A stretch of 64,000 nt of DNA, taken from contig JANRJA010000011.1 of NCBI GenBank assembly GCA_033764315.1, forward strand, positions 13,561-77,560, in the 5' to 3' direction. Both the position numbers and the translations under genes were made by a program. The first letter of the stretch is position 1, and each line of letters starts with the position of its first letter. This stretch comes from Oculatellaceae cyanobacterium bins.114 (GTDB taxonomy: Bacteria > Cyanobacteriota > Cyanobacteriia > Elainellales > Elainellaceae). Shown here piece after piece: positions 1,889 to 17,949 of the stretch. The notes beneath the pieces were generated by a model. The model made no database searches and had not been told where the DNA came from. It saw only the letters and a list, made by a program, of their open reading frames with translations.

Positions 1889-1897
1889 ACTGAAGGT

Positions 1898-2818: not shown

Positions 2819-2914
2819 CCACAACAGATGCACAGAGTAAAATTGCAACATGATTGATAGGTGGGCATTGCACAAAAGTAGGTATTATGTGCGTTTAATT
2901 TGACAATATTAGTC

Positions 2915-3043
2915 GCGATCGTGCAGGGGCAGCGGAATCTGCGGCTCACGAATCCAGCATTTCAGTTTGTTTGATCAGACGATTCACAGTTGCTCAGGGT
3001 CAACCCCCATATCTCGCAGCTTATTGGCCAAGGCTTGCGATCG
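2915..3043 (+). repeat. Copy 1 of a 129-bp HIP1-to-HIP1 direct repeat (copy 2 at 17821-17949)
   Basis: Ungapped manual alignment, about 12 mismatches in 129 bp; both ends are GCGATCG. Confidence 0.9.
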
Positions 3044-3229
3044 ATCCCATTATCTCCACTGAATCTGCATCTGAAGTCTCTGATGTCACCAAAACTTAAG
3101 AATGGGTACAGGATGCGGATGGGGATGTAGTGAAACTTTTTTAACAAATTGGCTGATTGCAATCCAAGAAATTACTGATAAAATCTACCGTATTATTCTT
3201 TTCAAACTTCTTAATCAGGAAGATGCATC

Positions 3230-6200
3230 ATGCCAGCATTGTCTCCCCTGCTGAGATGGCTCAGCACTGGCGCTACTGTTCTAGGCTCGTTTAGCCTGTT
3301 GACCCAATCCACTGCACTGGCGCAGATTGTCCCAGACAACACATTGGGTAACGAGCCATCCAGAGTACGATCGGGGGTCACGCTTCGCGGACAGGTGGCT
3401 GATCAGATTGAGGGAGGGGCTGTTCGTGGGGCAAACCTGTTTCACAGCTTTAGTGACTTTGATGTAAACCAGGGACAGCGGGTTTACTTTGCCAACCCCA
3501 CTGGTATTGACAACATTATCAGTCGTGTAACAGGGCGCAACGTCTCAAATATTGATGGTCTGCTGGGGGTCGATGGGCTTGCCAATCTATTTCTGCTCAA
3601 CCCCAATGGCATCATCTTCGGACCCAATGCCCAATTGGATGTGAGTGGCTCCTTTACCGCCAGTACGGGCGATCGCTTCACCTTCCCCGATGGCAGTGAG
3701 TTCAGTGCCACCAATCCCCAGGCTCCGCCTCTGCTGACGGTGAGTGTGCCAATTGGGTTACAGTACGGTGCCGCACCAGAGGCGATCGCCAGTGAAGCAA
3801 ACCTGAGTGCAGGTCAGGATCTGACCCTGTTTGGGGGGAATTTGAACTTACAGGGACAACTGACTGCTGGAGAAACCTTGAGTTTAAATGCTCAAGAGCG
3901 TATACAGGTGCAATCTGGTAGTACCCTCTTCTCTGGTAGAGATACTGTGGTTCAATCACCAATTCGGTTATTGGGTGACGCTAACTATACAGTGGGTGGC
4001 TACTTTATCATCCAGGAACTGGATGGTACTCCCGTAGAGAGTTTGGATCCACGTAACAATACCAGCATTATTCGGACCAATGGGGACGTGACGTTGACGG
4101 GTGAGTATAGTGGTCCACCTCTCTTTATCTTGGCTGGTGGAAAAGTCCAGTTAAGTGGAGTATCAATTACGAGTTTTGGCATTACACGCGATATTTCTGA
4201 TGGAACTGGTGGAAATCAAACGATTACCGTTAATCCCCAACAAGCTCTTAGCGTGAGTAGCGGAGTTGATTGGGCAGCAGAGGGTGGATTAACTAGTGCC
4301 AACGAACCCGCTTCTTTAGGTGGAGCAAGTGTGACGTATGGCACTGCGACGGGTGGCAACCTGGATCTACAGGGACAACTTGCAACCAATGGAGAAAACA
4401 TTGCGTTAACTGCGAGAGACAATATTGCATTAACTGTAGATGGAACTTTGAACTTGCAGGGACAACTTCGAGCTGAAGGAACCTTGACTTTAGAGGCTCA
4501 AGGGGCGATCGCCAGTCAAGCGAACCTGAGTGCAGGTCAGGATCTAACCCTGAATGGGAGAAATTTGAACTTACTACAGGGACAACTGAATGCCACGGGG
4601 AATTTGACACTACAAGCGCAAAATACGCTTCAGATTCAAGATAGTGAAACTCAGCCATTTCAAGCGACTGCGGGTAATCAGCTTCTCCTGCAAGGTGACC
4701 AGGCTGTTGATATCTCTCTCAACAATTATGGTAGTTCCTTGAACGCAGGTGGAGATCTAGTTTTACGGTCAACTAGTGGCAACATTAATATTAGTGGTGG
4801 TACGCTCAACTCCAGTTCGACTAACACTCCTGCTGGACAAATTTCAATCAATGGACAGAATGTAACCTTAAGTAATACTGAAATTAACTCTAGGTCATCT
4901 TCTAGCACTGGTGGGCAGATAACTATTGCAGCCTCTGGTAACGTTAGGATTAGTGATCGTTCCATTAACTCGACATCACAGGCTAGTTCGGGCGGACCCG
5001 TTTCAATTAGCGGTCAAAATGTAACTTTAGAGCGGGTTGGAATTGACACCGCATCTTTCGGAGGTAGTGGTGGCAGTGGCGGCGTTTCTATCACAGCTAA
5101 TGGTGGCACCGCTAGGCTTTTAGGAGGAGATTCTCGCCCTACTATTTATGCTGATAGCTTCAACAGTGATAGTGGTTCTTCTGGCGGAGACATTCGTATT
5201 GAAGCGGCGACTATTGATATAAGCGATTATGAACTAAATGCTGCGGTCAATTCTTCGGGTTCGGGTAGTGATATTATCCTGTCTGCCACTGGCAATATTC
5301 GTCTTGACAATAGTACCTTTACTACTGAAGTTCAGGCAGAAGCATCAGGTTCGGGCGGAGGTATTCAAATCAATGATGTAGGATCGCTCTCCCTGAACAA
5401 TTCTATTCTCAGTGCCAGTACTGCAGGTGCGGGTGCTGCCGGACAAATCCGCATTGCTGCTAGAAACGATGTTACTTTAACTAATGGGTCTCAGATTCGC
5501 AGTAACGTTGAGACAGGGGCTTCTGGTCGAGGAGGAGACATTCAAATCAATGCTCCCTCGCTCTCATTAACCTCTACACCATCGGAACCAAGTTCTCCAC
5601 CACAACCCTCACAAATTTCTGCCAGCACGGCGGGCAGCGGAAATGCCGGTACAATTACCCTCGGCAGTGCGAACGATCCAATTGAGCAAATTACGATTTC
5701 GGGTAATGGCTCTGGAATTTTTGTAACGACTAATGATTATTTGGACCCAACTGTTTCTACTTTTGGAGAACAAGATGATGTTGGTCAATTATTAAACAAT
5801 GCTCGATTAATCACCGATGTTAGCCAAATTATTGGATCATTAGAAAACCCAGATGATGTAGATCTCTACCGCATTGAGTTGAATGGTCAACCCTTTTCAG
5901 CAACCACTCAAGGCACAGTCGTTGATACACGATTGTTTCTTTTTGATCAACAAGGTTTGGGAGTTTATGCCAATGAAGACATCAGTGATAGTGATTTCAG
6001 TTCACGCCTGCCTGAGGACAACGCTCTGACCCCAACAGCTTCTGGGACATACTATCTGGCGGTAAGCAGTTATGGTAGATATCCGGTCAGTCCAAATGGG
6101 TCTATTTTTGGTCTTGAGTCTGCTGCGTTTACCGATGTAGTTGGTCGAACGGAACCTGGAGGTGGATCACGGTTAAATGACTGGCAGGGGAATGGTTTAG

Positions 6201-9200
6201 ATTCGGGCAATTACACCATTCAACTTACGGGAGTCAATAGTCAAACGCCTCGTCCCCTCCCAGGTGGTGTGGGTGGTGTTATAAATGTCCACGCCAATTC
6301 TGTTAATGTTTTGGGTGGTGGAAGTTTTAGCGCTGAAACTCGTGGCAGTGGACCTGCGGGAAATCTTTCGATGACTGCTAATACAGTCACGTTACAAGGA
6401 AGTCGCATTACAGCCGCAGCAACGGGAAACAGTCCCACGTCGCGTGCAGGTAACGTCACCATAAATGCTCAAACAATAGACCTTTCAGATAACTCAGGAA
6501 TCGTCACGATAAACAGTTCTTCAGCGGTTCCAGTAGCAGAGCGATCGCGCTTCGGTAACATCCAACTCGACAATGTCAACAATCTCACAGTTGCCAATAG
6601 CTTAATTGTCTCGAGAACTGAGAGTGGTGTGGCTGGTAGCGTTCAGATTAATGGTGGAACGGACAGCTCTGTCACCTTAAGTGGTGTTACAGGTGACTTG
6701 AACGGCGATGGGATCATCAACATTCTTGAAGGAGAAGGAGTTGGAGGTATCGTTACAACAGCAATTGCTGGTGGTCGTGCAGGTGATGTTCTTGTCAATA
6801 CAAATCGATTATCCATTAGTAGCGATGCTCAAATCACTGCCAGTAATCGGACAACGGCAGGAAACGGCTCTGGTTCAGCAGGGAATGTAACAGTTTCAGC
6901 CAATACGATCACCCTCAATAATGGTGATATCGATGTGGAAACGGAAGCGGGAGCGGGTGGTAATGTCATCATTACTGATCTCAATACCCTTAGCGCAACT
7001 AATGGTAGTAGTATTTCAACCAGCACCGGTACTGGCATTGCAGGGAGTATTCGCATTAATGAAGAACAACCTGCTGCATCCACCATTCAATTCACCGATA
7101 GTGCGCTGAGAGCTAATGCAGCCTCTGGTCAGGGTAATGCTGGGGATGTAACTGTAAATACGCAAGGTTTGACCGTGGAGCGATCGCGCATCTTAGCTCA
7201 AACCGTTTCTGGTACAGGTGGTGATATTACCCTGACAGGCTTAAGGGATTTAAGTGCCACGAATAGTCAAATTTCGGCCTCAACAGATAGTGGTATTGCG
7301 GGTAATGTGACAATCAATGCCACTGACTCAGTGGTGCTTACGGGAAATGGTCCTCTCACCAATAGTGGCGACCCAAGCGATCGCCCAGGTATTTCTGTTC
7401 AAGCAAGAAATGGGGGGAATGCTGGAGATATTGCCATTACTACCCCTACACTCACTGTTCAAAATGGTGCTCGTGTCTCAGCATCAACTGCTGGTAATAA
7501 CGGGGGTGATCTGGGAGGCAGCATTACCGTTACAGCAGATACGGTCAGCCTGTTTGGGCAACCCAATGAATCTGATAGCCAGCGTACAGGGCTGTTTTCA
7601 GAGACGAATGGAGCAGCTAATGCGGGCGACCTTACCCTGCAACCTCTACCTGGTACGGGCGATCTCCAGATCAACTTTTCTAATGGAGCACAATTATCAG
7701 CCTTAACTAGGGGCAGCGGCGAGGGGGGAAATGTGTCAATTATCGCTCCACAATCAGTAGCGATCGCGGGGAATGGCACCGTTTCGGTTGATACCCGCAA
7801 CACTGGTCAGGGAGGAAGAATTGACATCAACGCACCCACCCTCACCATTCGAGACGGAGCCAGAGTTTCCACCTCCACAAGTGGTACGGGTGCGGGTGGG
7901 AAGATTAGGGTCACTGCGGATACCGTTAATCTGTCAGGAGCAACCACCGCCTTATCATCCAATACATCCAATACTGGCGCTGCTGGAACGCTTAACCTGA
8001 TTCCTGCAACGGGGCGATCGCTCACGGTTAATTTTGAGGATGGGGCACAACTGTCAGCCCGAACCACCGGGCAAGGGGAGGGCGGCAATGTCTTTTTAGG
8101 AGATGATCCGAGGATTGCCCCAGCACCGTTAGAGGCTATTTCGCTCCGAGGGAGAGGCAGTTTACAGGTGTCTGCTGAAGGAGGCGGAAATGCAGGTTTA
8201 TTAGGAATCAATACCAATTTATTTAACCTTGGAACTGGAGTTCGTCTTGTAGCCAATTCAATTCGTAGTCGAGCTGGAGCGGTTGCGTTTCGCTCAGGAG
8301 ACGTGTTTGTGATTGACTCTCGGATTGAAGCCTCAACATCACTGAACTCTGCTGGGGGCATTATTGTTCAAGCCAATAGACGGGTTCAGCTCCGGGGCAC
8401 GTTCCAGAATGACAATGGTACCGTTCTTCCAGCGGGGCTGTTTGTTGAGGGCGGTGCGAGCGGAGAAGCTGGATTTTTAACCATCACTACGCCCCGATTA
8501 ATCATCGAAAATGGTGCTCAAGCCTCAGCTAGAGCCAGGGCAGGAAGGGGTGGCGGTGTTTCCGTAAATGCACATTCCATTGAGATCAACAGTCGTGGAG
8601 AGACCAGAACGCGCACAGGCATTCTTGCCAGTTCTACCTCTGGTACTGGCGGTAATATTCTTCTCTTTGGAGTGAATCAACTCAATCTCCAAGATGGAGT
8701 CATTTCTGCTGAAACACAAACGGGTGTTGCAGGCAATGTGCGAGTTAATGCAGCAGGTGGAACAGTGCAACTGAGGGGTAGCAGAACTCGGCTAACCGCA
8801 AGCGCGACAGGAGAGGGTGGACGAGCAGGTAATGTGGAGATCATTGCTCGTCGCGTTAATGTGGAGAATGGAGCAAGATTGACGGCACAGGCAACTGGAA
8901 GACAAGGACGAGCAGGTAATGTGACGGTGACTGCTAGAGGGGGGAGCCTGACGGTGAGCGGTGGAGCTGAGTTAACCGTAAGGAATCGAGATGGGGTTGC
9001 AGGTAATCTCAGGATCAACGCAGGGACAGTTATTTTGAACCGTGGCAACCTGATTGCGATCGCCGGACTGGGTGACAATGGCAATATTATAGTCACACAA
9101 TCCGGTTTGTTATTCCGGCCTCAGAACAACAGTCGCATCTCAGCACAGGCGATCAACAGTGCTTCTGGGGGAACTGTTAGGTTAAATGTGCCAAATGGTT

Positions 9201-9790
9201 TTGTTTTAACCAACTATCTGGAGAATAACGATATTATTGCCAGTGCCTTAGGGGAGGGGGATGGCGGGAGTGTCCGGATTACTGCCCTGGGTATTTTTGG
9301 TTTAGAACAGCGCTCCGAAGAGACATCCTATAGCGATATTGTTGTCACCTCTCGATTTGGCACCGATGGTACGGTTGTGCTGGACACCTTAGGCGTTGAC
9401 CCTACCCGAGGGCTGGCAGCCGTCCCCGAACTGGTTGACCCTAGCGATCAGGTGGATCAAGGTTGCGGAGCAGATGGTGCGATCGCCCAAACACAAAATC
9501 AACAGACGCAAAATCAATTTGTTGTCAGCGGACGGGGGGGATTACCTGCACAACCCACCGGCAGTTTAACCCCCGATGCAATTACCGGTGATTGGGTATC
9601 TCTGGAAGGAACTGCTACCGAGCAAGCGACCGTACCCTCATCCCGTGCAGAGCTTCAGGAGATGACAGAAATTGTGGAAGCACAGGGCTGGTCGGTTAGT
9701 GAAAAAGGGGATGTGATTCTGACTGCGCCTCCAACTGCAACAGCTCCTTCCGATCAATTTAGCACTACTACCTGTCAATCATCCCTATGA
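3230..9790 (+). CDS. Filamentous haemagglutinin-like TpsA exoprotein (2186 aa) with an inserted PPC/DVUA0089-like domain
   Basis: Signal peptide (ALA|QIVPD); TPS domain (NLFHSFSDF, ANLFLLNPNGIIFGPNA); G/S/T/N-rich beta-helix repeats; cyanobacterial-type C-terminus (GRGGLP..IVEAQGW..C). Confidence 0.92.
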   Translation: MPALSPLLRWLSTGATVLGSFSLLTQSTALAQIVPDNTLGNEPSRVRSGVTLRGQVADQIEGGAVRGANLFHSFSDFDVNQGQRVYFANPTGIDNIISRVTGRNVSNIDGLLGVDGLANLFLLNPNGIIFGPNAQLDVSGSFTASTGDRFTFPDGSEFSATNPQAPPLLTVSVPIGLQYGAAPEAIASEANLSAGQDLTLFGGNLNLQGQLTAGETLSLNAQERIQVQSGSTLFSGRDTVVQSPIRLLGDANYTVGGYFIIQELDGTPVESLDPRNNTSIIRTNGDVTLTGEYSGPPLFILAGGKVQLSGVSITSFGITRDISDGTGGNQTITVNPQQALSVSSGVDWAAEGGLTSANEPASLGGASVTYGTATGGNLDLQGQLATNGENIALTARDNIALTVDGTLNLQGQLRAEGTLTLEAQGAIASQANLSAGQDLTLNGRNLNLLQGQLNATGNLTLQAQNTLQIQDSETQPFQATAGNQLLLQGDQAVDISLNNYGSSLNAGGDLVLRSTSGNINISGGTLNSSSTNTPAGQISINGQNVTLSNTEINSRSSSSTGGQITIAASGNVRISDRSINSTSQASSGGPVSISGQNVTLERVGIDTASFGGSGGSGGVSITANGGTARLLGGDSRPTIYADSFNSDSGSSGGDIRIEAATIDISDYELNAAVNSSGSGSDIILSATGNIRLDNSTFTTEVQAEASGSGGGIQINDVGSLSLNNSILSASTAGAGAAGQIRIAARNDVTLTNGSQIRSNVETGASGRGGDIQINAPSLSLTSTPSEPSSPPQPSQISASTAGSGNAGTITLGSANDPIEQITISGNGSGIFVTTNDYLDPTVSTFGEQDDVGQLLNNARLITDVSQIIGSLENPDDVDLYRIELNGQPFSATTQGTVVDTRLFLFDQQGLGVYANEDISDSDFSSRLPEDNALTPTASGTYYLAVSSYGRYPVSPNGSIFGLESAAFTDVVGRTEPGGGSRLNDWQGNGLDSGNYTIQLTGVNSQTPRPLPGGVGGVINVHANSVNVLGGGSFSAETRGSGPAGNLSMTANTVTLQGSRITAAATGNSPTSRAGNVTINAQTIDLSDNSGIVTINSSSAVPVAERSRFGNIQLDNVNNLTVANSLIVSRTESGVAGSVQINGGTDSSVTLSGVTGDLNGDGIINILEGEGVGGIVTTAIAGGRAGDVLVNTNRLSISSDAQITASNRTTAGNGSGSAGNVTVSANTITLNNGDIDVETEAGAGGNVIITDLNTLSATNGSSISTSTGTGIAGSIRINEEQPAASTIQFTDSALRANAASGQGNAGDVTVNTQGLTVERSRILAQTVSGTGGDITLTGLRDLSATNSQISASTDSGIAGNVTINATDSVVLTGNGPLTNSGDPSDRPGISVQARNGGNAGDIAITTPTLTVQNGARVSASTAGNNGGDLGGSITVTADTVSLFGQPNESDSQRTGLFSETNGAANAGDLTLQPLPGTGDLQINFSNGAQLSALTRGSGEGGNVSIIAPQSVAIAGNGTVSVDTRNTGQGGRIDINAPTLTIRDGARVSTSTSGTGAGGKIRVTADTVNLSGATTALSSNTSNTGAAGTLNLIPATGRSLTVNFEDGAQLSARTTGQGEGGNVFLGDDPRIAPAPLEAISLRGRGSLQVSAEGGGNAGLLGINTNLFNLGTGVRLVANSIRSRAGAVAFRSGDVFVIDSRIEASTSLNSAGGIIVQANRRVQLRGTFQNDNGTVLPAGLFVEGGASGEAGFLTITTPRLIIENGAQASARARAGRGGGVSVNAHSIEINSRGETRTRTGILASSTSGTGGNILLFGVNQLNLQDGVISAETQTGVAGNVRVNAAGGTVQLRGSRTRLTASATGEGGRAGNVEIIARRVNVENGARLTAQATGRQGRAGNVTVTARGGSLTVSGGAELTVRNRDGVAGNLRINAGTVILNRGNLIAIAGLGDNGNIIVTQSGLLFRPQNNSRISAQAINSASGGTVRLNVPNGFVLTNYLENNDIIASALGEGDGGSVRITALGIFGLEQRSEETSYSDIVVTSRFGTDGTVVLDTLGVDPTRGLAAVPELVDPSDQVDQGCGADGAIAQTQNQQTQNQFVVSGRGGLPAQPTGSLTPDAITGDWVSLEGTATEQATVPSSRAELQEMTEIVEAQGWSVSEKGDVILTAPPTATAPSDQFSTTTCQSSL

Positions 9791-12501
9791 AGCTCCCAAC
9801 CTCCCTCAGACGTGCTTTCGTTTTTCTGCTACTCGTCGCATTGACTGCTGGGCTGTGCGGGATTGCCACTCCAGGATTGGCGCAACGCTCCGATCGCCAG
9901 GTTGCTGTTAATTTATCTGAGGTCAACCCACCCCTAGCGACCCAACCAGCGTCTCTGCTCGACCAGGGGAAAGCTCTGTACGACGCAGAACAGTTCAGTC
10001 GAGCCGTACCCATTCTGCAACAGGCTGTACAAGAGGCACAAGCGAGAGGGAATAGACTGCAACAAGCGATCGCTCTCAGTAATTTATCCCTGACCTATCA
10101 ACAACTGGGTGCCTGGGCGGAAGCGGAACAAGCACTGCAACAAAGTTTAGGTTTGTTAGAACCACAACAAGCCACGGTTACAACACAGCAACTCTCGGTG
10201 CTGGCACAAACGCTGAATGTGCAGGCACGGTTGCAGTTGGGGCAAGGACAGGCACAAGCTGCTCTAGAAACCTGGGAACGTACTGCAATGCTGTATCAGC
10301 AGTTGGAGAATACAACTGGGGTAGTTCAGAGCCGGATTAATCAATCGCAAGCATTGCGATCACTGGGGTTTTATAATCGAGCGATCGCCACACTCACAGA
10401 CATTCAGAGACTCCTCGAATCTAGTGCCGATTCCCTGGATAAAGCAGTGGCACTTCGTAGTTTAGGAGATGCGTTGCGGGTTTCGGGCACACTGGACAAA
10501 TCCTATGAACAACTAGAACAGAGTTTACAGATTGCTCAGGCGATTGGAGAGGCTAAGGCGATCGCGGCAGCACAAATTAGTTTGGCAAACACACGGCAAG
10601 CTCAGGCATCAGAGATTAACTTAGACGTAGCAGACCGCACTGATCAGGAGCGTGTTCGCCAATGGCGCGGTGAAGCCCTTCAGCGTTATCAGTCTGTGGT
10701 GGAAACCCGTCCATCCCTGCCACTGTTGATGGTGGTACAGGCACAATTGAATCAACTTAATCTGTTAATTTCAATGGAGCGTATTGCTGAGGCAGTACGG
10801 CTGATACCTGCGATTCAAACCCAGTTAAACCAACTACCCTCCAGTCGAGCGGCGATCGATGCTCAAGTAAATTTTGCTCACAGTTTGATCGATCTGAAGC
10901 CAGGTGCTACTGTTACGCCTGCTGAATTACCTTCAGTACTGGATATTGCTAACGGGTTATCTACTGCTTATCAACAGGCAATTCAATTGAACGATCAACG
11001 AGCCATTTCCTATGTTTTGGGAACGTTGGGGTATCTTTACGAACAATCAGAGCAATTCAGCGATGCCAAACCATTAACCCAACAAGCGATGATCCTATCG
11101 CAGTCCATTCAGGCCGATGATTTGAGCTATCGCTGGCAATGGCAACTGGGGCGGATGGTGAAGTTGGAGAATCAGCAGAGTGAGGCGATCGCCCTGTATA
11201 GCGAAGCGTACAACAGTCTACAACGGGTTCGCAATGACCTGATTGCAGCCAACCCGGATCTCCAGTTTTCCTTCCGCAACGACGTAGAACCGATTTACCG
11301 GGATCTGGTTGATTTGTTGCTGCAAAAAGCCCCCCAGGTTTTCAAGCCGAAAGAGAAGCAAGCGATTCTAGGACAGGCTCGATCGATTATCGACTCGTTG
11401 CGGGTGGCAGAATTGCAAAACTTCTTTCGGGCAGCCTGTCTAGATGCCACCTCGCAAATTGATGCGATCATTAACGAGCAAACCCCAACCGCGGCAGTGA
11501 TTTATCCGATCCTGTTGCGCGATCGCCTGGAAATCATCCTGAAGCTGGCTGGAACGGATCTGATGCAGTATACACTGCCCGCTTCATCTGAAGCTGAGAT
11601 CACCCAGGTTCTCAAAACATTTCGCCGTGAGTTGCAAGAACCCTATACCTTCCGTTCGACTAAAGAAATTGGACAGCAGGTTTACAATTGGTTAGTTCAA
11701 CCAATGCGTGATGAGTTGGATCGACGGGGTATTAAAACACTGATCTTTGTACTGGATGGCGCACTGCGAAATATCCCCATGAGTGCGCTTTATGATGGTA
11801 ACCATTATTTGATCGAGAACTTTGCAGTTTCGCTGGAACTGGGTCTGACCATTCGCAATCCGCTTCCCTTAAGGCGCAATGCGATGCGAATTCTGGCGGC
11901 AGGGCTGGTGAATCCTCCCCCCACTGCCAGCACCTACGCCCAGTTACCCAATGTTACAACAGAATTAGATTTCATTAGCTCGTTAGGCTTACCCGCTACG
12001 ATCCTGCGCGATACCGAATTCACGAAACCACTGTTTAAACAGTCCCTCCAGCAGGCAAACCCCCAGGTCATCCATCTGGCAACCCACGGGCAGTTTGGTG
12101 TGAATCCCGAAGATACCTTCATTCTGTATGCGGACGGGAAAGTACCCCTCAATCAATTAGCCGATCTGTTTAAGACGGAACAACGGGGGCGATCGCGTGC
12201 GGTTGAACTGCTGGTGTTGAGTGCCTGCCGTACCGCAACGGGGGATAGTCGTACCGTTCTGGGGATTGCCGGAACCGCTGTTGAAGCAGGGGCGCGGAGT
12301 GCGATCGCCTCACTCTGGAGCTTAAACGATGCGGCTACGGTTCCCGTCATTGAGGAACTCTATCGCCATCTGGGGCAGGAGGGTGTCACCCGTGCTGAGG
12401 CTCTGCGACAGGCGCAACTGAAATTGCTGCAAGAGCCAGAGGGCCTCTATACCCATCCCCGCTACTGGTCGCCCTATGTGCTGGTGGGTAGTTGGCTTTA
12501 G
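9787..12501 (+). CDS. Exported TPR + CHAT (caspase/HetF-like) protease
   Basis: Sec-type signal (GLA|Q), TPR helices, intact catalytic motifs IHLATHG and LVLSAC, terminal HPRYWSPYVLVGSWL; 4-bp ATGA overlap with the TpsA gene. Confidence 0.93.
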   Translation: MKLPTSLRRAFVFLLLVALTAGLCGIATPGLAQRSDRQVAVNLSEVNPPLATQPASLLDQGKALYDAEQFSRAVPILQQAVQEAQARGNRLQQAIALSNLSLTYQQLGAWAEAEQALQQSLGLLEPQQATVTTQQLSVLAQTLNVQARLQLGQGQAQAALETWERTAMLYQQLENTTGVVQSRINQSQALRSLGFYNRAIATLTDIQRLLESSADSLDKAVALRSLGDALRVSGTLDKSYEQLEQSLQIAQAIGEAKAIAAAQISLANTRQAQASEINLDVADRTDQERVRQWRGEALQRYQSVVETRPSLPLLMVVQAQLNQLNLLISMERIAEAVRLIPAIQTQLNQLPSSRAAIDAQVNFAHSLIDLKPGATVTPAELPSVLDIANGLSTAYQQAIQLNDQRAISYVLGTLGYLYEQSEQFSDAKPLTQQAMILSQSIQADDLSYRWQWQLGRMVKLENQQSEAIALYSEAYNSLQRVRNDLIAANPDLQFSFRNDVEPIYRDLVDLLLQKAPQVFKPKEKQAILGQARSIIDSLRVAELQNFFRAACLDATSQIDAIINEQTPTAAVIYPILLRDRLEIILKLAGTDLMQYTLPASSEAEITQVLKTFRRELQEPYTFRSTKEIGQQVYNWLVQPMRDELDRRGIKTLIFVLDGALRNIPMSALYDGNHYLIENFAVSLELGLTIRNPLPLRRNAMRILAAGLVNPPPTASTYAQLPNVTTELDFISSLGLPATILRDTEFTKPLFKQSLQQANPQVIHLATHGQFGVNPEDTFILYADGKVPLNQLADLFKTEQRGRSRAVELLVLSACRTATGDSRTVLGIAGTAVEAGARSAIASLWSLNDAATVPVIEELYRHLGQEGVTRAEALRQAQLKLLQEPEGLYTHPRYWSPYVLVGSWL

Positions 12502-12569
12502 AACAGGTCAGTATTGGCAACTAAAGTTGTCCCGCTTATATCACTCTCTTAGATAAGAACAGAACCAAA

Positions 12570-12683
12570 CATGGTCAGGTTATTCTCGTTGCTGAATCAA
12601 CGACGGAAGCGATCGCACCAGCAGCGTTACAGAATCCAGGGCGGTGTTCAGTTGCCGTAGCCCCCAACCCTCTGTCTCATTAA
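12570..12683 (+). pseudogene. Possible C-terminal remnant of a second TpsA-like gene
   Basis: Reads HGQVILVAESTTEAIAPAALQNPGRCSVAVAPNPLSH*, resembling the upstream TpsA tail KGDVILTAPP...C. Confidence 0.45.
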
Positions 12684-12728
12684 CCAGCCTCAACGTTAAC
12701 CACTCTCAATGCAATTCTGGCAATGAAC

Positions 12729-13487
12729 TCACCGGGAACTCACTGGCGTTAATTCGGGAATCGCTTGTTGCGAAATGCCTTCTAACTCATACGCTCCCAG
12801 GATGCGTGACCATAGGGGTTGCAGACTGCGATCGCTAGAATAATCAGCCAGACTTGCTAAAGCGTCATACCAGGCATTTTCGGCTTCGTAGGCGCGGTAG
12901 TGTGACGGCCCTGGCAACACCCGCAACTTTAACGCCAGGTTATCACTCGGTGCAGTCCGTTGAATCCAACCGCTAATGACTGGATTGCGCGAGGGTTCTT
13001 CTGCGTCACAGATGATTGAGAAATACCAGTTATATCGCTGATTTGTGGCTAAAGGGGGTGCTGTTTCAGGGAGCCTAAACTGCACTAGACCAATCGTCTC
13101 TGGCAACGTGACTCGAATGGGACGGTCGATCGCGTAGTTTTGTTGATCATCCAGCAGCATGAACTCGGCATAGGCCATCTGAGGCGATCGCGCAAAAGGT
13201 ACGTAAAACAAGAAGGTTGGATAATCTTGCGTGGTTGAACCCACCCCATCAGGCGGCACGAATGCAAACAAAGGCTGGTTACTTACTGGGGCACTACATC
13301 CATCATCGCGAATCGATGCTCCCTCACCAGTCCCTCGTCTTGGGGCTTCACGATTTCGACGACCAAATAAAAGGTCGAAAAGCCCTGCCTGCGCGGGGGG
13401 AGTGAGCGTTAGCACTAGCATTGAACTAATGCTAAAAACCACTATCCATCCTAAACAGCGTTGTATTAATCGAGTTTGCCAGATCAC
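12729..13487 (-). CDS. DUF928-family exported protein
   Basis: Signal peptide (AQA|G), G-A-S-x-R..C motif, TTQDYPTFLFYVP, YNWYFSIIC, WYDAL. Confidence 0.85.
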   Translation of the reverse strand: MIWQTRLIQRCLGWIVVFSISSMLVLTLTPPAQAGLFDLLFGRRNREAPRRGTGEGASIRDDGCSAPVSNQPLFAFVPPDGVGSTTQDYPTFLFYVPFARSPQMAYAEFMLLDDQQNYAIDRPIRVTLPETIGLVQFRLPETAPPLATNQRYNWYFSIICDAEEPSRNPVISGWIQRTAPSDNLALKLRVLPGPSHYRAYEAENAWYDALASLADYSSDRSLQPLWSRILGAYELEGISQQAIPELTPVSSR

Positions 13488-13631
13488 AAAACGACTCTAG
13501 AGAATATATACACAACAGCCTTATAAAATGGGTCGGGAGGAGTCTTAAAGATTGAATTGGAATAACCATACCATGCGTTACTAGAAATTGCTGTATACGC
13601 CTCACAACGTTTAGCATTCACACCTAATGCG

Positions 13632-16600
13632 TTACCAGGGATTGCGAATGCGATAGCTGAGATAGGCAACGCCCGCTCCAGATATCACAAAGGCGATCGC
13701 CCCTGGAACTAACGGCATCCATCCACTAGAAACAATAAAAATGCCATAGCAACTGCCCACCAATAGCACAAACGCTCCCGTTGTTGCTAAGCACAAATGA
13801 ATGGGTCTAACCAACCCCCAAAATACCAATCCACCCGTGATTGACCAGCCCAAGATCCACAACAGTTCGCCCTCCATCGACATCCACCAGATCAACGGTC
13901 GTTGATCCAAAACAGTGCTAATTAATTGACTGATCATTTGTCCCTGGAGAAACACACCTGCAATTCGCCCATGAGGAGAGAACCAAACATCGGCATTGCG
14001 ATCGCTGGTGTCAGTGTAACCAATCAAAACAATGCGATCGCGGATACATTCAGCCGCAACTTTGTTTTGCAACACGTCAGCCAATGTCACCGTATCGGCA
14101 AAGGTTTCAACTGGATTGTCAGAAAGTTTGGCAGAGGGTTGAGCAACACAAGAAGACAATTGAGTGCGATCGCCTACGCGATAATTCAACATGAGTTGAT
14201 ACCCACCCAGCAATGGATCAAGAGGAGAATACCCACTGCCATCTCCTCTAAGCAGGGGAATGGGTGTTTCCCCAAAGCGCATAACCCCATCAGATGACGG
14301 CTCGTCCGGATGAATAAAGGGTTTGTTGAGTGCATCTAGATACCGCCGCACCAAAACTAAGCTAAACGATTGGTCTGTATTGCAAAACTCTGGATCAGCA
14401 GAGCTAATCAGCAATTGCCGACGCACAAGGCGATTGGTTCCATCTGCAAGGGCGTTTGCAAATCCAATGGATTCAAGGTCAGTAATAGTGCGATTGGGGA
14501 TACCGTCTGTAGGATTGCCTTGATTATCCCATGCTCTAGATAAGCAATTGCCGATGATGTTGGGGGAATTGGCCAGGCGATCGCGCAAAATGGGTTCTGC
14601 AGGAAAATCACGATAAAAATCTAGCCCAATGAGCCGGGGTTGGTGAGATTCTAAAATCTTGAGCACATCATTAAGGGCAGCATCAGGAATGGTACCAATA
14701 CCGGGTTGATAGACTCTATTAATCATCTGTTCGCGTAACAGAGAGCCGCTAGAACTATCAACTTTGACAATGAGTAGATGTGGGTCGAGCGGTTCAACCG
14801 GGCGCAGTTGCACGAAGCTGTCATATGCCCTCAGCTCTAGTGGTTGCAGGAAACCTAGCACACGAGCGATCGCCACTAAAATCATGGCTGCCACACTAGT
14901 GAACAATGCAGACCGCAACTTGATTTTACGAAATGGTAACGCTTGACTGGCTTGGATATAATCTTGTTGCAAAGGGGTGAGTTTAGGCTCTTTTGTTTCA
15001 GCGATCGCCAGCCACTCCATAGCTGTTTTTAGTGGTTTCCCACGCAACAACAAATCATCATCTCGATTAGACTGTACCCATTCCTTCGCTTTGACAAGCA
15101 ATCGTGTATGCAACTGCACATATTCCGGATCACTTGCGAGTAAGCGAATGAGTTCACCAAAACTTTTCAGCAAATCATCTTGATGATCTCTAAAATCAAT
15201 CCATTGAATCGTGCTCAGCACAGGCGGTAACTCATGAGGAGGAACATCCTGATATAAAACTGTCACCAGTCGTTTGTTAAGCGACACAGCGTAGTTCAGT
15301 TGATCTAAGCAATCGGTTGACTGAATAGAATTTGGAGAGATCACAAACAAAAAATTATCCGAGTTCTCAATTCCCTGTTGAATCGCAAGTTGAGAATCCT
15401 GCCCACTCTCCAGGCTCTCTTGAGCAAACCAGGTTCCCATGCCCTGAAGTTGCAAGTTGTCATTAAATTTGCGAACAAATTCAATATCTAGGGGTGAATA
15501 GCCAATGAAGACATTAAAGGTTTGGTCGTGGGGTTGTTGTTGGCTTGCTTCAATAAATTCTTGGTGGATTGGCAGCGGAGCAAATTGAGGGTGATGAACG
15601 GCTTCCTTTAACCAGGCTTCTGCTTGCCGTAAGTAACTTCCTTGTAACAAAATGCTAGGGTTGTCGTACTGATATTCCCATTTCAAGGCTCGAACGAGCA
15701 GAAGTTTATGTTGTCTATGGTAGTTCTCATTTTGCCGTAACGTATTCAGCAGTTGAGCTTCACAAGTGTGGTAATTGTCTTCACTGATCACAGTGGTGAG
15801 GTCAATATATTGCAAGTCATGCAAGGCAAAAGGAACATGATTCATGTCAACTAAACGCAACAACAACGGCACAATCCGTTTGTTGAGTTGATGTGCATAC
15901 TCAATTTCCATCTGGCAATATTCTGATTGCAATGAATCGGATGACATTAAGTAAACTAAGTTGTCAGATTGCTCAATTCCCCGTCGCAATGCTCTGGTAA
16001 AGTCTTCCCCAATTTGAATATCAGTACTGGTAGACCATACTGTGATCCCCTGATATCGAAGTGAATGACGTACCTTCTCCATAATTTCCCGATCTTCATT
16101 CGCATAAGAGAGAAAAACTTGAGTCATCAAATTTTGCTCGTTTTTGATGCTCTCAGTAATGAATTCGGCGTGTAGTTCGGTGGGGTTGCATGGGGCTTGT
16201 TCTCCCTTAAATCGAGTCTTAAGCCATGCTTCTGCTAACTCCAACTCTTTCCCTGTAAGTAAATCATGAGTTTTACGGTGATGACGGCTCCAACTTAAGG
16301 CTTTTGATAACAATACGGTGTGGTGATACACATAGGATTGGTGACGCTCTAAAGCTGACTTCAAATTTGTCAAGGCAGCGTCAAAACCATCCACTTCATT
16401 CTGAAAATTGACCCAGTTGATACTTTGAATGGCTGGATGCATATTGGGATAACTGGAGTGCAAACCCCTAGCTCTGTAATCCTCCCATTGCTCATCTGTA
16501 CCATTGGGATTACGCTGTCGCCAGATTTCTTGATTGATTTGCTCAACGTGTAGCAGTGGAATGATACGTTTGTTGTATTTGAGTGCAAGCTCAATCTCTA

Positions 16601-16859
16601 ATTGACAGTAGACAGAGTTAACAGAGTGCGGTGAAATAACAAATAGAAAGTTTTTAGAGCGTTCAATCCCGTCCTTGATCTGTTCCTGAAAATCGACTGC
16701 AACTGGAATATCGTTAAGATCTAACCAAATGTTGTACCCTGCTATGGCTAGTTGACTATACAGCTTTAAGGCAAACGCTTTGCTGTCTAACCTGCCATAG
16801 GAAATAAAAACATCAAAAAGCGCGTGTGAGTTTGCCGAGATTAATATGTCGTCTTCCAT
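13632..16859 (-). CDS. Triple-TIR, transmembrane, CHASE2 receptor (1075 aa)
   Basis: Three TIR domains (DVFISY, QVFLSY, NVFIGY), one TM helix, CHASE2 (LELRAYD, PRLIGLDFYRD, IVLIG, GVFLQGQMISQLIS) and three terminal TM helices. Confidence 0.9.
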   Translation of the reverse strand: MEDDILISANSHALFDVFISYGRLDSKAFALKLYSQLAIAGYNIWLDLNDIPVAVDFQEQIKDGIERSKNFLFVISPHSVNSVYCQLEIELALKYNKRIIPLLHVEQINQEIWRQRNPNGTDEQWEDYRARGLHSSYPNMHPAIQSINWVNFQNEVDGFDAALTNLKSALERHQSYVYHHTVLLSKALSWSRHHRKTHDLLTGKELELAEAWLKTRFKGEQAPCNPTELHAEFITESIKNEQNLMTQVFLSYANEDREIMEKVRHSLRYQGITVWSTSTDIQIGEDFTRALRRGIEQSDNLVYLMSSDSLQSEYCQMEIEYAHQLNKRIVPLLLRLVDMNHVPFALHDLQYIDLTTVISEDNYHTCEAQLLNTLRQNENYHRQHKLLLVRALKWEYQYDNPSILLQGSYLRQAEAWLKEAVHHPQFAPLPIHQEFIEASQQQPHDQTFNVFIGYSPLDIEFVRKFNDNLQLQGMGTWFAQESLESGQDSQLAIQQGIENSDNFLFVISPNSIQSTDCLDQLNYAVSLNKRLVTVLYQDVPPHELPPVLSTIQWIDFRDHQDDLLKSFGELIRLLASDPEYVQLHTRLLVKAKEWVQSNRDDDLLLRGKPLKTAMEWLAIAETKEPKLTPLQQDYIQASQALPFRKIKLRSALFTSVAAMILVAIARVLGFLQPLELRAYDSFVQLRPVEPLDPHLLIVKVDSSSGSLLREQMINRVYQPGIGTIPDAALNDVLKILESHQPRLIGLDFYRDFPAEPILRDRLANSPNIIGNCLSRAWDNQGNPTDGIPNRTITDLESIGFANALADGTNRLVRRQLLISSADPEFCNTDQSFSLVLVRRYLDALNKPFIHPDEPSSDGVMRFGETPIPLLRGDGSGYSPLDPLLGGYQLMLNYRVGDRTQLSSCVAQPSAKLSDNPVETFADTVTLADVLQNKVAAECIRDRIVLIGYTDTSDRNADVWFSPHGRIAGVFLQGQMISQLISTVLDQRPLIWWMSMEGELLWILGWSITGGLVFWGLVRPIHLCLATTGAFVLLVGSCYGIFIVSSGWMPLVPGAIAFVISGAGVAYLSYRIRNPW

Positions 16860-17001
16860 AGTCGTGAGGGAGCTAGAGTTTTAAGAATATCACTATCTAT
16901 TTATGACGAGAGGAAAATTACTGGTGATATTCAGGAAACTCTGTTTATAGATGTAGCGATCACCCTTTGACCTCCATTAATGGAACTTTGACCTCCATCT
17001 G

Positions 17002-17265
17002 TCATTCCCATACAGATGGCAATCTAGAGGATAAGAATGCTAGTTGTCTGAATGTGCGTGCACTAGGACAGCCGCTGATGAGACTTTCTATCAGTGCATC
17101 TTCTATGGCTCCCAAGGCTTTGAGCGTTGCTTTTTGAGTTTCAGTAATACCCTTTACTCTAGTGATATTCATCCCTTCATAGGGGCGATCGCTCCTCAAT
17201 GTCTTTATGCACTCTCCCCGATTTAGATCCCAAAGCCAGATAGTTTCATCATCGCTACTCTTCAA
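17002..17265 (-). pseudogene. C-terminal fragment of an NB-ARC/NACHT-WD40 protein
   Basis: SSDDETIWLWD..GECIKTLRSDRPYEGMNIT..GITETQKATLKALGA matches the typical tail of cyanobacterial STAND-WD40 proteins; the rest of the gene is absent. Confidence 0.75.
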
Positions 17266-17319
17266 TTAGAACTATTTGAAATCAATCGAGCTGTACTTGG
17301 GGTATAAAAAACGGCTATT

Positions 17320-17880
17320 TTGACTATTTCGGATGATGACACGCCCAGTTCTCCGAGCACTTACAACATTCCTGGATCTCCAAATACACCTGAAACTCCT
17401 AGCAATCCCGTTACTCGAATGGGTAATGCTCGTAGCGATCGCCTGCTTGGTACATCAGTCAATGAGGTTTTGGTTGGGTTGCGTGGCAACGATACAGTCC
17501 AGGGGGACGTTGGTGCAGATACACTGATTGGGGTTGACCCCAATACTCGGAAACCCGGTGTGTGTGAACGCGATGTATTGATGGGCAACGAAGGAGCCAA
17601 TGTGTTTGTTTTGGGGAACGCTCAATCCGTTTTCTACAACGATGGCAACCGTGCAACAGTAGGATTGCAAGACTACGCCTTAATTAAGGACTTCAATGCC
17701 AGCAGCGATCGCATTCAATTACACGGACGCCGATCCAACTACCATCTTGGTGCTGCTCCACAGGGAACACCAAAAGGAATTGGCATCTTTTTGGAGAACG
17801 GCAGAACGGATGAGTTAATTGCGATCGCACAAGGACAGCGAAATCTGCGACTCACCAATTCTACATTTCAGTTTGTTTGA
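17320..17880 (+). pseudogene. N-terminally truncated RTX-type calcium-binding protein
   Basis: Starts mid-domain (LTISDDD, like the end of a Calx-beta domain; TTG only); GxxGND repeats; DYALIKDF..DRIQL tail. Confidence 0.6.
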
Positions 17881-17949
17881 TCAGACGATTCACAGTTGCT
17901 CAGGGTCAACCCCCATGTCTCGCAGCTTATTGGCTAAGGCTTGCGATCG
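17821..17949 (+). repeat. Copy 2 of the 129-bp HIP1-bounded repeat
   Basis: Spans the convergent stop codons of the RTX and Uma2 genes; full GCGATCGC at both ends. Confidence 0.9.

Follow-up and report, generated by a model that had tools for sequence, protein, structure and literature searches.

Do four neighbouring genes of a cyanobacterial genome, one pair of them facing the other, make up a single system that signals from the cell envelope to the cytoplasm? They lie in a 64,000-nucleotide window, the whole stretch of contig JANRJA010000011.1 that was analysed, and encode a TpsA exoprotein, a TPR-CHAT protease, a DUF928 protein and a TIR-CHASE2 receptor (Table 1). Open reading frames and Pfam domains agree with a first-pass annotation of this DNA on the four genes and the places of their features, and the translational coupling that it proposed between TpsA and TPR-CHAT is located at an ATGA (9787-9790) in which the TpsA stop overlaps the CHAT start. 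Such an arrangement goes far beyond what chance would give, since the four families are found together again in other genomes, and the cassette is a real, largely undescribed system. Our leading but tentative reading takes these genes as a single copy of a modular cassette by which cyanobacteria signal from envelope to cytoplasm.

Table 1. Features of the four-gene locus, with positions given in the window.
Feature	Nucleotides	Residues	Strand	Basis or remark
TpsA exoprotein	3230-9790	2186 aa	+	PF05860 E 1.1e-47
TpsA signal peptide		1-32	+	N-terminus read from sequence
TpsA TPS domain	3320-3919	31-230	+	PF05860
TpsA C-terminal tail	9530-9547		+	Cys, then GRGGLP at residue 2101
TPR-CHAT protease	9787-12501	904 aa	+	PF12770 E 2.2e-55, TPR_12 E 1.3e-15
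TPR-CHAT signal peptide or signal anchor	9787-9885		+	hydrophobic N-terminus
CHAT domain		627-902	+	PF12770; TPR region precedes
CHAT catalytic His	12085-12087	His767	+	alignment
CHAT catalytic Cys	12226-12228	Cys814	+	alignment
DUF928 protein	12729-13487	252 aa	-	PF06051 E 1.3e-42
DUF928 signal peptide	13386-13487		-
DUF928 Gly/Arg-rich arm	13296-13385		-	ends at conserved Arg60 and Cys64; low-confidence in model
DUF928 FN3-like β-sandwich		82-177	-	AF2 model, Foldseek
DUF928 helical bundle		182-232	-	AF2 model
TIR-CHASE2 receptor	13632-16859	1075 aa	-	three TIR_2 stretches E 8.1e-79; CHASE2 (PF05226) E 2.1e-48
TIR1	16536-16811		-	cytoplasmic; Glu88 at 16596-16598
TIR2	15783-16118		-	cytoplasmic; Glu318 at 15906-15908
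TIR3	15156-15512		-	cytoplasmic; Gln520 at 15300-15302
Receptor TM1	14850-14906	652-670	-	hydropathy
CHASE2	13827-14888		-	periplasmic; invariant Cys772, Cys826
Receptor C-terminal TM helices (three)	13656-13865	~999-1068	-	hydrophobic stretch, read as three helices

Signal peptides and receptor topology were read from sequence and hydropathy. TpsA begins with a hydrophobic stretch ending ALA/Q, which would fit a Sec signal peptide, and the TPS domain that follows places the protein among the TpsA exoproteins; TIGR01901 also matches it (E 2.8e-25), and NPxG motifs are present at residues 89 and 124. By its composition the long Gly/Ser/Thr/Asn-rich repeat region is putatively the usual β-helix. 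The tail motif is common to five of the seven unfused TpsA proteins compared. A cognate TpsB (ShlB, PF03865) is not encoded alongside, with zero matches on this contig and six elsewhere in the genome; related loci have one, adjoining CHAT. Since such adjacency is usual but not defining, TpsB is assumed to act here in trans.

The TPR-CHAT protein has a hydrophobic N-terminus ending LAQ that again fits a Sec signal peptide, and an N-terminal hydrophobic segment is found in 14 of 15 TPR-CHAT relatives. Both catalytic residues are invariant in all 15 aligned proteins; the CHAT fold with its His/Cys dyad belongs to clan CD, and peptidase activity is predicted. In the own-genome paralogue of the locus and in other loci, TpsA exoproteins carry CHAT as a C-terminal fusion. 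These fusions, the hydrophobic N-termini and the adjacency of TpsB all point to a probable extracytoplasmic location for CHAT, as first proposed.

There is almost no literature on DUF928, a single paper being found in the library that we searched. Our protein matches PF06051 over profile positions 3-183 of 184 and has a hydrophobic, signal-type N-terminus ending AQA/G that would suit Sec export, and it is thus a member of this family. The AF2 model (pLDDT 85.4; residues 1-70 at 53-74) is most similar, according to Foldseek, to the C-terminal domain of MtxA (4z29; E 5.2e-5) and to FN3 domains. Arg60, Cys64 and Cys160 are nearly invariant among 115 sequences. On the receptor, Pfam and hydropathy bear out the predicted order of three TIR domains, a TM helix, an extracytoplasmic CHASE2 domain and three further TM helices, which is the topology of CHASE2 sensors. 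A K/R cluster stands directly before TM1, and four long helices are seen in an AF2 model (pLDDT 88.2). Ectodomain residues Cys772 and Cys826 are invariant in 62 of 62 sequences; together with C64 and C160 of DUF928 and the signal-type N-termini, these conserved paired cysteines support an extracytoplasmic compartment.

Our survey covered 74 loci with the TIR module, 18 of them TIR-CHASE2 and 56 with no CHASE2 detected. Eight are of the 3xTIR-CHASE2 type, and in all seven with downstream DNA the next gene, on the same strand, encodes DUF928; with two lineages of a phylum sample, G002 and G020, this becomes nine of nine other loci. The families that supplied the surveyed loci are few and related, and kin are not independent. 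A convergent TPR-CHAT gene is next in six of the seven, the exception being L088, which has receptor and DUF928 but where CHAT was not found within 8 kb. Overall, an exported CHAT is nearby in eight of the nine, TpsA and/or TpsB accompanying most. Beyond TPR-CHAT lie TpsA (L098, L102 and L119), a cut 917-aa ORF (L092), or ShlB and a 1417-aa ORF without a Pfam match (L064), and the DNA of L079 stops inside CHAT. G002 and G020 have TIR3-CHASE2, DUF928, TPR-CHAT and TpsA, to which G020 adds TpsB. The own-genome paralogue (contig C213) is a co-directional operon of TIR3-CHASE2, DUF928 and a TpsA-CHAT fusion, and of six 5xTIR-CHASE2 loci with enough DNA, five have downstream either such a fusion or a TPS gene that is truncated where the contig stops. 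DUF928 occurs in none of the 56 control TIR-repeat loci without detected CHASE2. Absence of the four families together elsewhere had been set beforehand as the outcome that would count against the proposal; they do occur together, both in the paralogous operon and at most of the other 3xTIR-CHASE2 loci. The flanking genes vary between loci, so that it is the cassette as a whole that is conserved.

The linkage of DUF928 to CHASE2 extends beyond TIR receptors. DUF928 adjoins seven of the 14 CHASE2 genes of this genome, whose outputs are TIR, His-kinase, cyclase, caspase-like or none. In 21 other genomes, a sample selected for possession of DUF928, 91 of the 139 DUF928 matches listed have a CHASE2 match no more than 5 kb away, and 89 of 206 CHASE2 matches have a DUF928. 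A strong CHAT gene is within 6 kb of at least 27 of the 139 DUF928 matches listed, across 14 of the 21 genomes. Copy number of DUF928 follows that of CHASE2 (Spearman 0.91) and strong CHAT (0.83), versus 0.30 for genome size. The DUF928-CHASE2 partnership first suggested from this one locus is probably real, given so strong a linkage, but the protease is not an obligatory neighbour, as three of the seven own-genome DUF928-CHASE2 pairs are without a nearby CHAT gene. CHAT may not be needed for the function of such pairs.

One could see here two independent modules that travel together, TPR-CHAT being a protease for maturation or release of the TpsA adhesin and DUF928-CHASE2-TIR a separate sensor of small molecules or envelope state. 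The two pairs, CHAT-TPS and DUF928-CHASE2, do often occur apart; CHAT is linked mainly to TPS/ShlB (11 of 13 strong CHAT genes of this genome are fused to TPS or within 8 kb of TPS/ShlB genes), as DUF928 is to CHASE2, and the sections of PMC8195603 drawn on here describe CHASE2 as a small-molecule sensor domain. We nevertheless consider independence unlikely: the modules are joined in eight of the nine other 3xTIR loci whose downstream DNA is available, in five of six 5xTIR loci and in the paralogous operon, in three different gene orders with differing flanks, and CHAT, TPS or ShlB is found in only four of the 56 control loci.

Equally improbable, in our judgement, is a guard or decoy role in inter-cellular conflict. 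TpsA, with CHAT fused or alongside, would be a contact-dependent weapon that reaches neighbouring cells, DUF928 a periplasmic bait or immunity protein and CHASE2-TIR its monitor; an incoming non-self CHAT would cut or bind DUF928 and set off altruistic NAD+ loss or lysis, the direction being from foreign protease to receptor. The delivered toxins of CDI systems occupy the C-terminus of the exoprotein, and CHAT has this position at the extreme C-terminus of the TpsA fusions, but VENN and (E/Q)LYN, the CDI pre-toxin motifs, are missing from all 11 TpsA or fusion proteins checked. The families are multi-copy and diversified, as such a role would have it, with 7230 representative clusters of DUF928 and, in each genome, 1-20 copies of DUF928 and 2-33 of strong CHAT, and there are lytic SLATT-type neighbours in relatives; yet DUF928 lies upstream of the fusion or is encoded on the other strand, unlike immunity genes, which come directly after the toxin end, and TPR-CHAT, where it is free, carries a signal peptide of its own and lacks a TPS domain. 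In other respects the locus resembles two-partner secretion and CDI systems (TpsA/TpsB, CdiA/CdiB) in its TPS domain with NPxG motifs and signal peptide, in the TpsB beside related loci and in the C-terminal enzymatic domain of the fusions. It differs in having no TpsB on its own contig, in that TPR-CHAT follows TpsA where CdiBAI would have its immunity gene directly downstream, a small gene of that kind being absent past the 3′-end, and in that the enzyme is a clan-CD protease, here a separate Sec-exported protein.

The three TIR domains of the receptor are separated by repeated helical linkers, and their PDB sequence matches are the NADase TIRs Cat1, AbTIR, SARM1 and TIR-1. All 62 relatives keep the Glu of the "YCxxE" motif in TIR1, and 60 of the 62 keep it in TIR2; it aligns with that of Cat1 and AbTIR, so that both domains have the fold of NAD+-cleaving TIRs and their catalytic Glu on the helix after strand C. 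TIR3 has Gln instead in our receptor, and 14 of the 62 relatives have likewise lost its Glu. NADase or cyclase activity of the receptor is predicted. A TIR-only CHASE2 output was new to the first-pass annotation but is not rare: TIR-CHASE2 is a large family of more than 100 protein clusters. Close homologues occur in strains of Anabaena, Trichormus and Nostoc that can be cultured, which puts the system within direct reach of experiment. TIR domains have scaffold roles besides enzymatic ones, and the chain might on ligand-driven clustering recruit other TIR proteins of the genome (e.g., TIR-STAND or TIR-WD40) in the manner of animal Toll adaptors, for which the 43 TIR_2 matches in the genome, the same TIR-linker repeat module on WD40 sensors (~50% identity) and the degenerate TIR3 could be cited, but the retained Glu of TIR1 and TIR2, the NADase TIRs as nearest solved relatives by sequence and the nucleotide signal that the SLOG/SLATT neighbours of relatives imply make a non-enzymatic scaffold very improbable.

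Those neighbours are SLATT/DUF4231 genes adjoining four of the 13 Pfam-scanned TIR-CHASE2 loci (L058, L079, L088 and L123), with SLOG genes alongside in L058 and L123. Some of the SLOG/SLATT proteins of relatives are fused to lysozyme or GH19, and M15 peptidases also adjoin, which suggests that the outcome is a breached membrane or lysis. In our genome, no SLOG, SLATT, SIR2 or Macro gene stands beside the four-gene cluster or its paralogue; DUF4231 has only two matches in 6.6 Mb, and the sole DUF4231/SLOG operon is on another contig (C246), so that here either NAD+ would be lost directly or a signal would work in trans. The effector arm is thus extrapolated from relatives.

To judge from gene context, the cassette looks like an outside-in version of Toll/Thoeris immune signalling. 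With Thoeris it shares TIRs with a catalytic-type Glu, which match ThsB-type TIR models of PADLOC and NCBIfam at the domain level, and, in the four relatives just named, an effector gene directly adjoining the TIR gene. Type I Thoeris has a SIR2-SLOG effector; TIR with SLATT constitutes type VII, a validated type with cADPR signalling according to the main text of a preprint (10.64898/2025.12.03.692087), in which the term "CHASE" is absent. The present system is unlike Thoeris in its four-helix membrane receptor with a periplasmic CHASE2 and three tandem TIRs, in its co-encoded secreted partner and exported protease, and, for this copy, in the lack of an adjoining effector gene.

From the domain content, topology signals, catalytic residues and conserved linkage that we observe, we infer each biochemical step, and the order of the steps, as follows. 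One module would be an exported clan-CD protease, a Sec-exported TPR-CHAT beside TpsA/TpsB or fused to the TpsA C-terminus, that works in the periplasm or on the surface of the cell; the other would be the CHASE2 receptor with DUF928 as its dedicated secreted partner, a conserved flexible Gly/Arg-rich arm followed by the FN3-like sandwich and helical bundle. Some event at the surface or in the periplasm, for which contact, damage to the envelope and attack by an invader are candidates, would lead CHAT to act on the DUF928 arm or the TpsA tail. The changed DUF928 would alter the state of the CHASE2 ectodomain, and the four-helix membrane part would relay this to the N-terminal cytoplasmic chain of TIRs, which would assemble and cleave NAD+, giving depletion or a cADPR-type signal whose likely receivers in several relatives are the neighbouring SLOG and SLATT proteins. 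In its most specific form, a proteolysis-gated transmembrane TIR receptor for which the TPS-linked caspase-like protease makes DUF928 a CHASE2 ligand, the NAD+-derived signal of the tandem TIRs leads to SLOG/SLATT lysis and DUF928, CHAT and CHASE2 form thousands of matched specificity sets, we regard the scheme as possible but on the unlikely side.

In insects, Toll has an LRR ectodomain and its ligand Spaetzle, a cystine-knot protein, is processed by a serine protease cascade. Like Toll, our receptor combines an outer sensor and an inner TIR in a single gene, with a secreted candidate ligand and an extracytoplasmic protease encoded alongside; unlike it, the ectodomain is CHASE2, the candidate ligand is modelled as an FN3-like sandwich with helices, there is one clan-CD protease, and the TIRs look catalytic. 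The likeness, known here from gene linkage, is one of logic and not of homology, the TIR domain excepted.

Two described CHASE2 systems share parts of this architecture. The Burkholderia "BiofilmReg" operon, in the portion of PMC5192318 relied on here, consists of a response regulator, a LysM-FecR protein and a CHASE2 His-kinase; it has the same TM, CHASE2 and three TM helices and a signal-peptide protein adjoining the receptor, a precedent for pairing a CHASE2 kinase with a secreted protein, but there the partner is LysM-FecR and the output a C-terminal kinase, while here they are DUF928 and N-terminal TIRs, with a CHAT/TPS module attached. FecR followed by CHASE2-HK is also found in our genome. 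The caspase-CHASE2 proteins (EACC2-type) of Kaur, Iyer, Burroughs and Aravind likewise place a cytoplasmic death-type effector N-terminal to TM-CHASE2, the effector being three TIRs in our case; the sections of their paper (PMC8195603) drawn on here mention neither DUF928, TPS nor a TIR-CHASE2 fusion. Our genome has three caspase-CHASE2 genes, two of them followed by DUF928.

Known bacterial TIR systems, e.g., Thoeris, sense inside the cell. If the proposal is true, bacteria would also signal through TIR from outside the cell, and bacteria would have in this protein their closest counterpart to a Toll-type receptor. DUF928, the ligand side of CHASE2 receptors and many exported CHAT proteases of filamentous cyanobacteria would each gain a first function, and multicellular cyanobacteria would possess a complete outside-in pathway of cell death or immunity with Spaetzle-Toll logic.

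The two convergent gene pairs of the cassette, TpsA with TPR-CHAT and the receptor with DUF928 downstream of it, had been proposed at 3230..16859 in the first-pass annotation, and their arrangement and features were fully confirmed by ORF, Pfam, hydropathy and catalytic-residue analysis. The TpsA stop and the TPR-CHAT start overlap in ATGA, 144 bases separate the receptor from DUF928, and no terminator-like site was found between the convergent TPR-CHAT and DUF928 genes. The flanks are unrelated (LysR, short-chain dehydrogenase, RTX-like ORF, Uma2, and a TPR-GT41 protein), and a profile search of the contigs of this genome revealed no gene for TpsB, the ShlB-type two-partner secretion transporter, on the window contig. 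Elsewhere in the window, on the minus strand, are a 1200-aa protein (19071-22673) in which numerous TPR repeats are combined with a glycosyltransferase group 1 region and a GT41 (O-GlcNAc-transferase-like) domain, and two tandem paralogous SulP-family permeases of 746 and 747 aa with STAS and cyclic-nucleotide-binding domains (28586-33138).

Genes of the cassette and of related loci (plain positions are those of the window; C, contigs of the same genome; L, fetched and annotated loci; G, sampled genomes)
Feature	Location	Strand	Remarks
TpsA exoprotein	3230-9790	+	2186 aa; TPS domain E 1.1e-47
TPR-CHAT	9787-12501	+	904 aa
DUF928 protein	12729-13487	-	252 aa
TIR-CHASE2 receptor	13632-16859	-	1075 aa; three TIR, TM helix, CHASE2
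TIR3-CHASE2 + DUF928	window and C213		own genome, two loci
CHASE2-His-kinase-receiver + DUF928	C113		own genome; DUF928 broken by stops
CHASE2, no recognized output, + DUF928	C215		own genome
Caspase-like-CHASE2 + DUF928	C199, C85		own genome; DUF1822 precedes each
CHASE2-cyclase + two DUF928 genes	C97		own genome
TpsB then TPR-CHAT	L043:7916-12552, L044:7010-11565, L030:11821-15509		no TpsA between
SLOG (LSDAT_prok) then SLATT	L123:6771-8097 (G020)		directly after DUF928, same strand
SLOG, SLATT-GH19, M15 peptidase	L058:5001-9772		just upstream of receptor
DUF4231 + M15	L079:6434-9479		
DUF4231-lysozyme (phage lysozyme) + M15	L088:8604-10978		
SLOG-SLATT_1-SLATT_3 operon	C246 (L126) 5933-9449	-	own genome's only one
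TIR-STAND-TPR; TIR-WD40	C246 (L126:1579-18100) 1579-4644; 14963-18100		neighbors of the SLOG-SLATT operon
NAD(P)H-hydrate repair gene	C246 (L126) 9691-11355		adjoins the SLOG-SLATT operon

Hydropathy places the receptor TM helix at residues 652-670, and the C-terminal hydrophobic stretch at approximately 999-1068 is read as three further putative helices. A Lys/Arg cluster ahead of the first helix and the lack of a signal peptide indicate that the TIR chain lies inside and CHASE2 outside. The N-termini of TpsA, TPR-CHAT and DUF928 each run from basic residues through a hydrophobic core to an Ala-x-Ala-like end, and from these sequences are read as predicted Sec signal peptides. Among 15 related TPR-CHAT proteins His767 and Cys814 are invariant, and 14 begin with a hydrophobic segment, the remaining one probably having a mis-called start. 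Conserved cysteine pairs in the CHASE2 ectodomain (Cys772 and Cys826, invariant in 62/62 relatives) and in DUF928 (Cys64 and Cys160, nearly invariant in 115 sequences) fit an oxidizing compartment.

TIR and CHASE2 are combined in more than 100 protein clusters; the TIR-only output, for which no precedent had been known in the first-pass annotation, is therefore that of a large family instead. The receptors measure about 1040-1075 aa with three TIR domains and about 1480-1530 aa with five, and all named carriers are cyanobacteria, including Nostoc, Anabaena, Trichormus, Calothrix, Coleofasciculus, Symploca, Lyngbya, Leptolyngbya, Halomicronema and Prochlorothrix. A scan for the TIR repeat module, with one genome per species, yielded 74 loci, which were annotated with HMMs made from the paralogues of our own genome; 18 of these encode TIR-CHASE2, eight with three TIR domains and ten with five. 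Seven of the eight three-TIR loci possess downstream DNA, and in all seven the receptor is followed by a same-strand DUF928 gene. A convergent TPR-CHAT gene comes next in six, L088 being the exception. Beyond CHAT lie TpsA (L098, L102, L119), a cut 917-aa ORF (L092), or ShlB and a 1417-aa ORF with no Pfam match (L064), while the L079 sequence stops within CHAT. Six five-TIR loci extend far enough downstream; apart from L056, where neither is present, each of these carries, on the same strand, either a TPS-CHAT fusion or a TPS gene truncated at the end of the contig. In six five-TIR loci (L053-L059, e.g., L058:14512-15585) the place of DUF928 is taken by a protein of 353-386 aa that has a signal peptide and a stretch rich in Gly/Arg; by eye one region looks FN3-like, and Pfam recognizes TPR repeats. 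This is the layout of DUF928, of which the protein is at most a possible relative (hhalign probability 41% over 44 columns).

The 56 TIR-repeat loci without detected CHASE2 served as a control; the scanned ones encode TIR-WD40 proteins, and at a few the sequence breaks off at a contig end. None contains DUF928, and four contain CHAT, TPS or ShlB, which is about chance for multi-copy genes, and a link of the TIR repeat module itself to CHAT/TPS was accordingly rejected. Two genomes of the phylum sample bear out the recurrence of the cassette: TpsA, TpsB and TPR-CHAT divergent from TIR3-CHASE2 and DUF928 (G020), and TpsA and TPR-CHAT converging on the latter pair with three sensor kinase genes between (G002). 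Genes outside the cassette vary among loci. The possibility raised earlier, that the four genes keep company nowhere else, thus falls away, since with differing flanks the cassette recurs in most three-TIR loci, on C213, and in G002 and G020. Uma2-family (putative endonuclease) genes were observed near the cassette in the window (17890-18687 and 24333-24911, both minus strand) and at related loci (L092:13971-14555, L080:4577-5392, L098:5918-6772); in L092 one such gene stands between DUF928 and CHAT.

Our own genome (6.6 Mb in 251 contigs, 90.7% complete) yielded 14 CHASE2 genes, together with 12 matches to DUF928, 21 to CHAT (13 of them strong), 16 to TPS, 6 to ShlB and 43 to TIR_2. Pfam scans of 20 regions revealed that DUF928 adjoins seven of the 14 CHASE2 genes; the seven without it comprise two Ser/Thr kinases, one GGDEF protein, one cyclase, a short protein, a His-kinase after a FecR protein, and a divergent caspase-like form. 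The key paralogue is C213, where TIR3-CHASE2, DUF928 and a 1781-aa fusion of N-terminal TPS to C-terminal CHAT follow one another on a single strand. This fusion has the CHAT domain alone in common with the window TPR-CHAT (32% identity, residues 579-903), not the TPR part, and three more TPS-CHAT fusions are found on C205, C27 and C41. Of the strong CHAT genes, 11 of 13 either form a fusion with TPS or have a TPS or ShlB gene at most 8 kb away, and in three cases (C166, C250, C215) TpsB is directly followed by TPR-CHAT with no TpsA; a TPR-CHAT beside TpsB carries no TPS domain. The operon on C113 (L029) reads TpsB-TpsA-TPR-CHAT-DUF928-CHASE2-kinase; its DUF928 is truncated (L029:10783-11319), the genome-search match contains one TGA and two TAA codons, and the copy may be decaying. 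DUF1822 genes precede caspase-like-CHASE2 genes at L031:6240-9745 (C199), L032:1949-5583 (C85) and L039:4772-8687 (C62), with DUF928 after two of these pairs. Caspase-like-CHASE2 gives the same sensor chassis a second output of the death type. On C177 a FecR-domain gene stands directly 5′ of a CHASE2-His-kinase-receiver gene (L038:4490-8678), and by analogy with the Burkholderia BiofilmReg operon its product is a putative alternative secreted partner.

The phylum sample comprised 80 other genomes, and DUF928 was present in 21 of the 27 from the same class versus none of the 53 from other classes. In these 21 genomes, which are kin and were picked for carrying DUF928, 91 of the 139 DUF928 matches listed have a CHASE2 match no more than 5 kb away (19 further matches are outside the count, and 11 listed from our own genome were excluded), and 89 of 206 CHASE2 matches have DUF928 within 5 kb. 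By our arithmetic, chance would give less than 2% at about ten CHASE2 genes per 6 Mb. A strong CHAT is located within 6 kb of at least 27 of the 139, in 14 genomes, a lower bound because 150 of the 282 strong CHAT matches were listed. The Spearman correlation of DUF928 copy number is 0.91 with CHASE2, 0.83 with strong CHAT and 0.30 with genome size. In our reading, DUF928 is a dedicated partner of CHASE2 and CHAT an associate of two-partner secretion, with a sizeable minority of loci joining the two modules, as nearly all the TIR-CHASE2 receptor loci seen here do. That CHAT/TPS and DUF928-CHASE2-TIR are two independent modules, each with its own partners and simply travelling together, we consider unlikely.

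A profile search at E <= 0.001 collected 7230 representative clusters of DUF928, which is thus a very large family of great diversity; the search replaced one by word index that gave only 8 proteins. In the model of the window protein (pLDDT 85.4), residues 82-177 form a beta-sandwich and residues 182-232 a bundle of four helices; structurally it best matches FN3 domains and the C-terminal domain of MtxA (the latter with E 5.2e-5, TM 0.36/0.47). The first 35 or so residues of the mature protein have low model confidence, yet this arm (window 13296-13385) contains a conserved motif, rich in Gly and Arg, whose end is formed by Arg60 and Cys64, both nearly invariant; such a pattern is the signature of a candidate linear motif, bound or cut. 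A Cys followed by GRGGLP occurs in the tail of five of the seven unfused TpsA proteins examined (window 9530-9547) and in none of the six TPS-CHAT fusions. These Gly/Arg motifs may serve as common sites of docking or cleavage; they resemble each other over a short span, and chance may account for it. The motifs of contact-dependent inhibition (CDI), VENN and (E/Q)LYN, are absent from 11 TpsA or fusion proteins, which speaks against a guard model, in which the receptor would sense foreign proteases delivered by TpsA; we think that explanation improbable.

The CHASE2 region was modeled with pLDDT 88.2 and pTM 0.88, and its ectodomain has no Foldseek match in the PDB at E <= 0.001. Its best wide VIA-align match is Dispatched (Z 9.7); the highest-ranked rows are RND-type transporters and helical viral coat proteins, whose alignments span only about 80-110 of the 431 residues, and we take the matched portion of the model to be the helical membrane part. 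Complex prediction for the ectodomain (672-995, 62 rows) with mature DUF928 (35-252, 115 rows) gave scores of 0.00 and 0.01, which weigh neither for nor against binding.

The glutamate of the "YCxxE" motif is kept in TIR1 of 62/62 relatives, TIR2 of 60/62 and TIR3 of 48/62; TIR3 of the window receptor has Gln in its place. By sequence, the closest TIRs of solved structure are Cat1, AbTIR, SARM1 and TIR-1, all of which cleave NAD+ and align at the Glu. That the TIR domains are a scaffold strikes us as very improbable. PADLOC and NCBIfam matched the window at the TIR-domain level only, and PADLOC has no system model for DUF928, CHAT or TpsA. Thirteen TIR-CHASE2 loci were scanned with Pfam (the window, L028, L058, L064, L079, L080, L088, L092, L098, L102, L119, L122 and L123), and in four of them DUF4231/SLATT genes lie within a few kb of the receptor. 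The M15 genes at these loci are Peptidase_M15_3, and in five sister loci ORFs correspond to the L058 set by size. These SLOG/SLATT neighbors, some fused to GH19 or phage lysozyme, together with M15, suggest a lysis arm driven by the TIR signal. Our own genome has two DUF4231 matches only, both in the operon on C246. According to a 2025 preprint (10.64898/2025.12.03.692087), TIR+SLATT operons form a defense system, type VII Thoeris, with a canonical cADPR signal, and in type I Thoeris SLOG domains receive TIR-made signals; "CHASE" is absent from its main text. Given these neighbors and the preprint, the family's TIR output is most economically read as a nucleotide signal that ends in breach of the membrane or in lysis. 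The window copy must either rely on an effector in trans or have NAD+ loss itself as its output.

The sequence of events that we tentatively favor, at somewhat less than even confidence, begins with the exported CHAT protease, which would act on DUF928 or the TpsA tail. DUF928 would then alter the state of CHASE2, the TIR chain would assemble and NAD+ chemistry ensue, and in relatives the SLOG/SLATT effectors would fire. Linkage, compartments and catalytic residues are observed; each of these steps, and their order, we infer. The cassette has TIR chemistry in common with Thoeris, as well as effector types through its relatives, and receptor logic with Toll; it has an accessory-protein habit in common with the CHASE2 kinases (PMC5192318) and an effector-CHASE2 fusion theme with caspase-CHASE2 (PMC8195603). 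Unlike all four, it unites a TPS-linked caspase-like protease, DUF928 and an N-terminal tandem TIR chain. The literature searched, most subscription journals being outside its scope, holds no description of the cassette, no work joining CHASE2, "CHAT domain" and cyanobacteria or "CHAT domain" and "two-partner secretion," and, in the parts of the sources available, no TIR-CHASE2 fusion. Within that scope, DUF928 itself appears in a passing mention of a CHASE2-DUF928 neighborhood in Nostoc punctiforme (PMC5587647). The cassette is real and widespread, and its mechanism is open to test.
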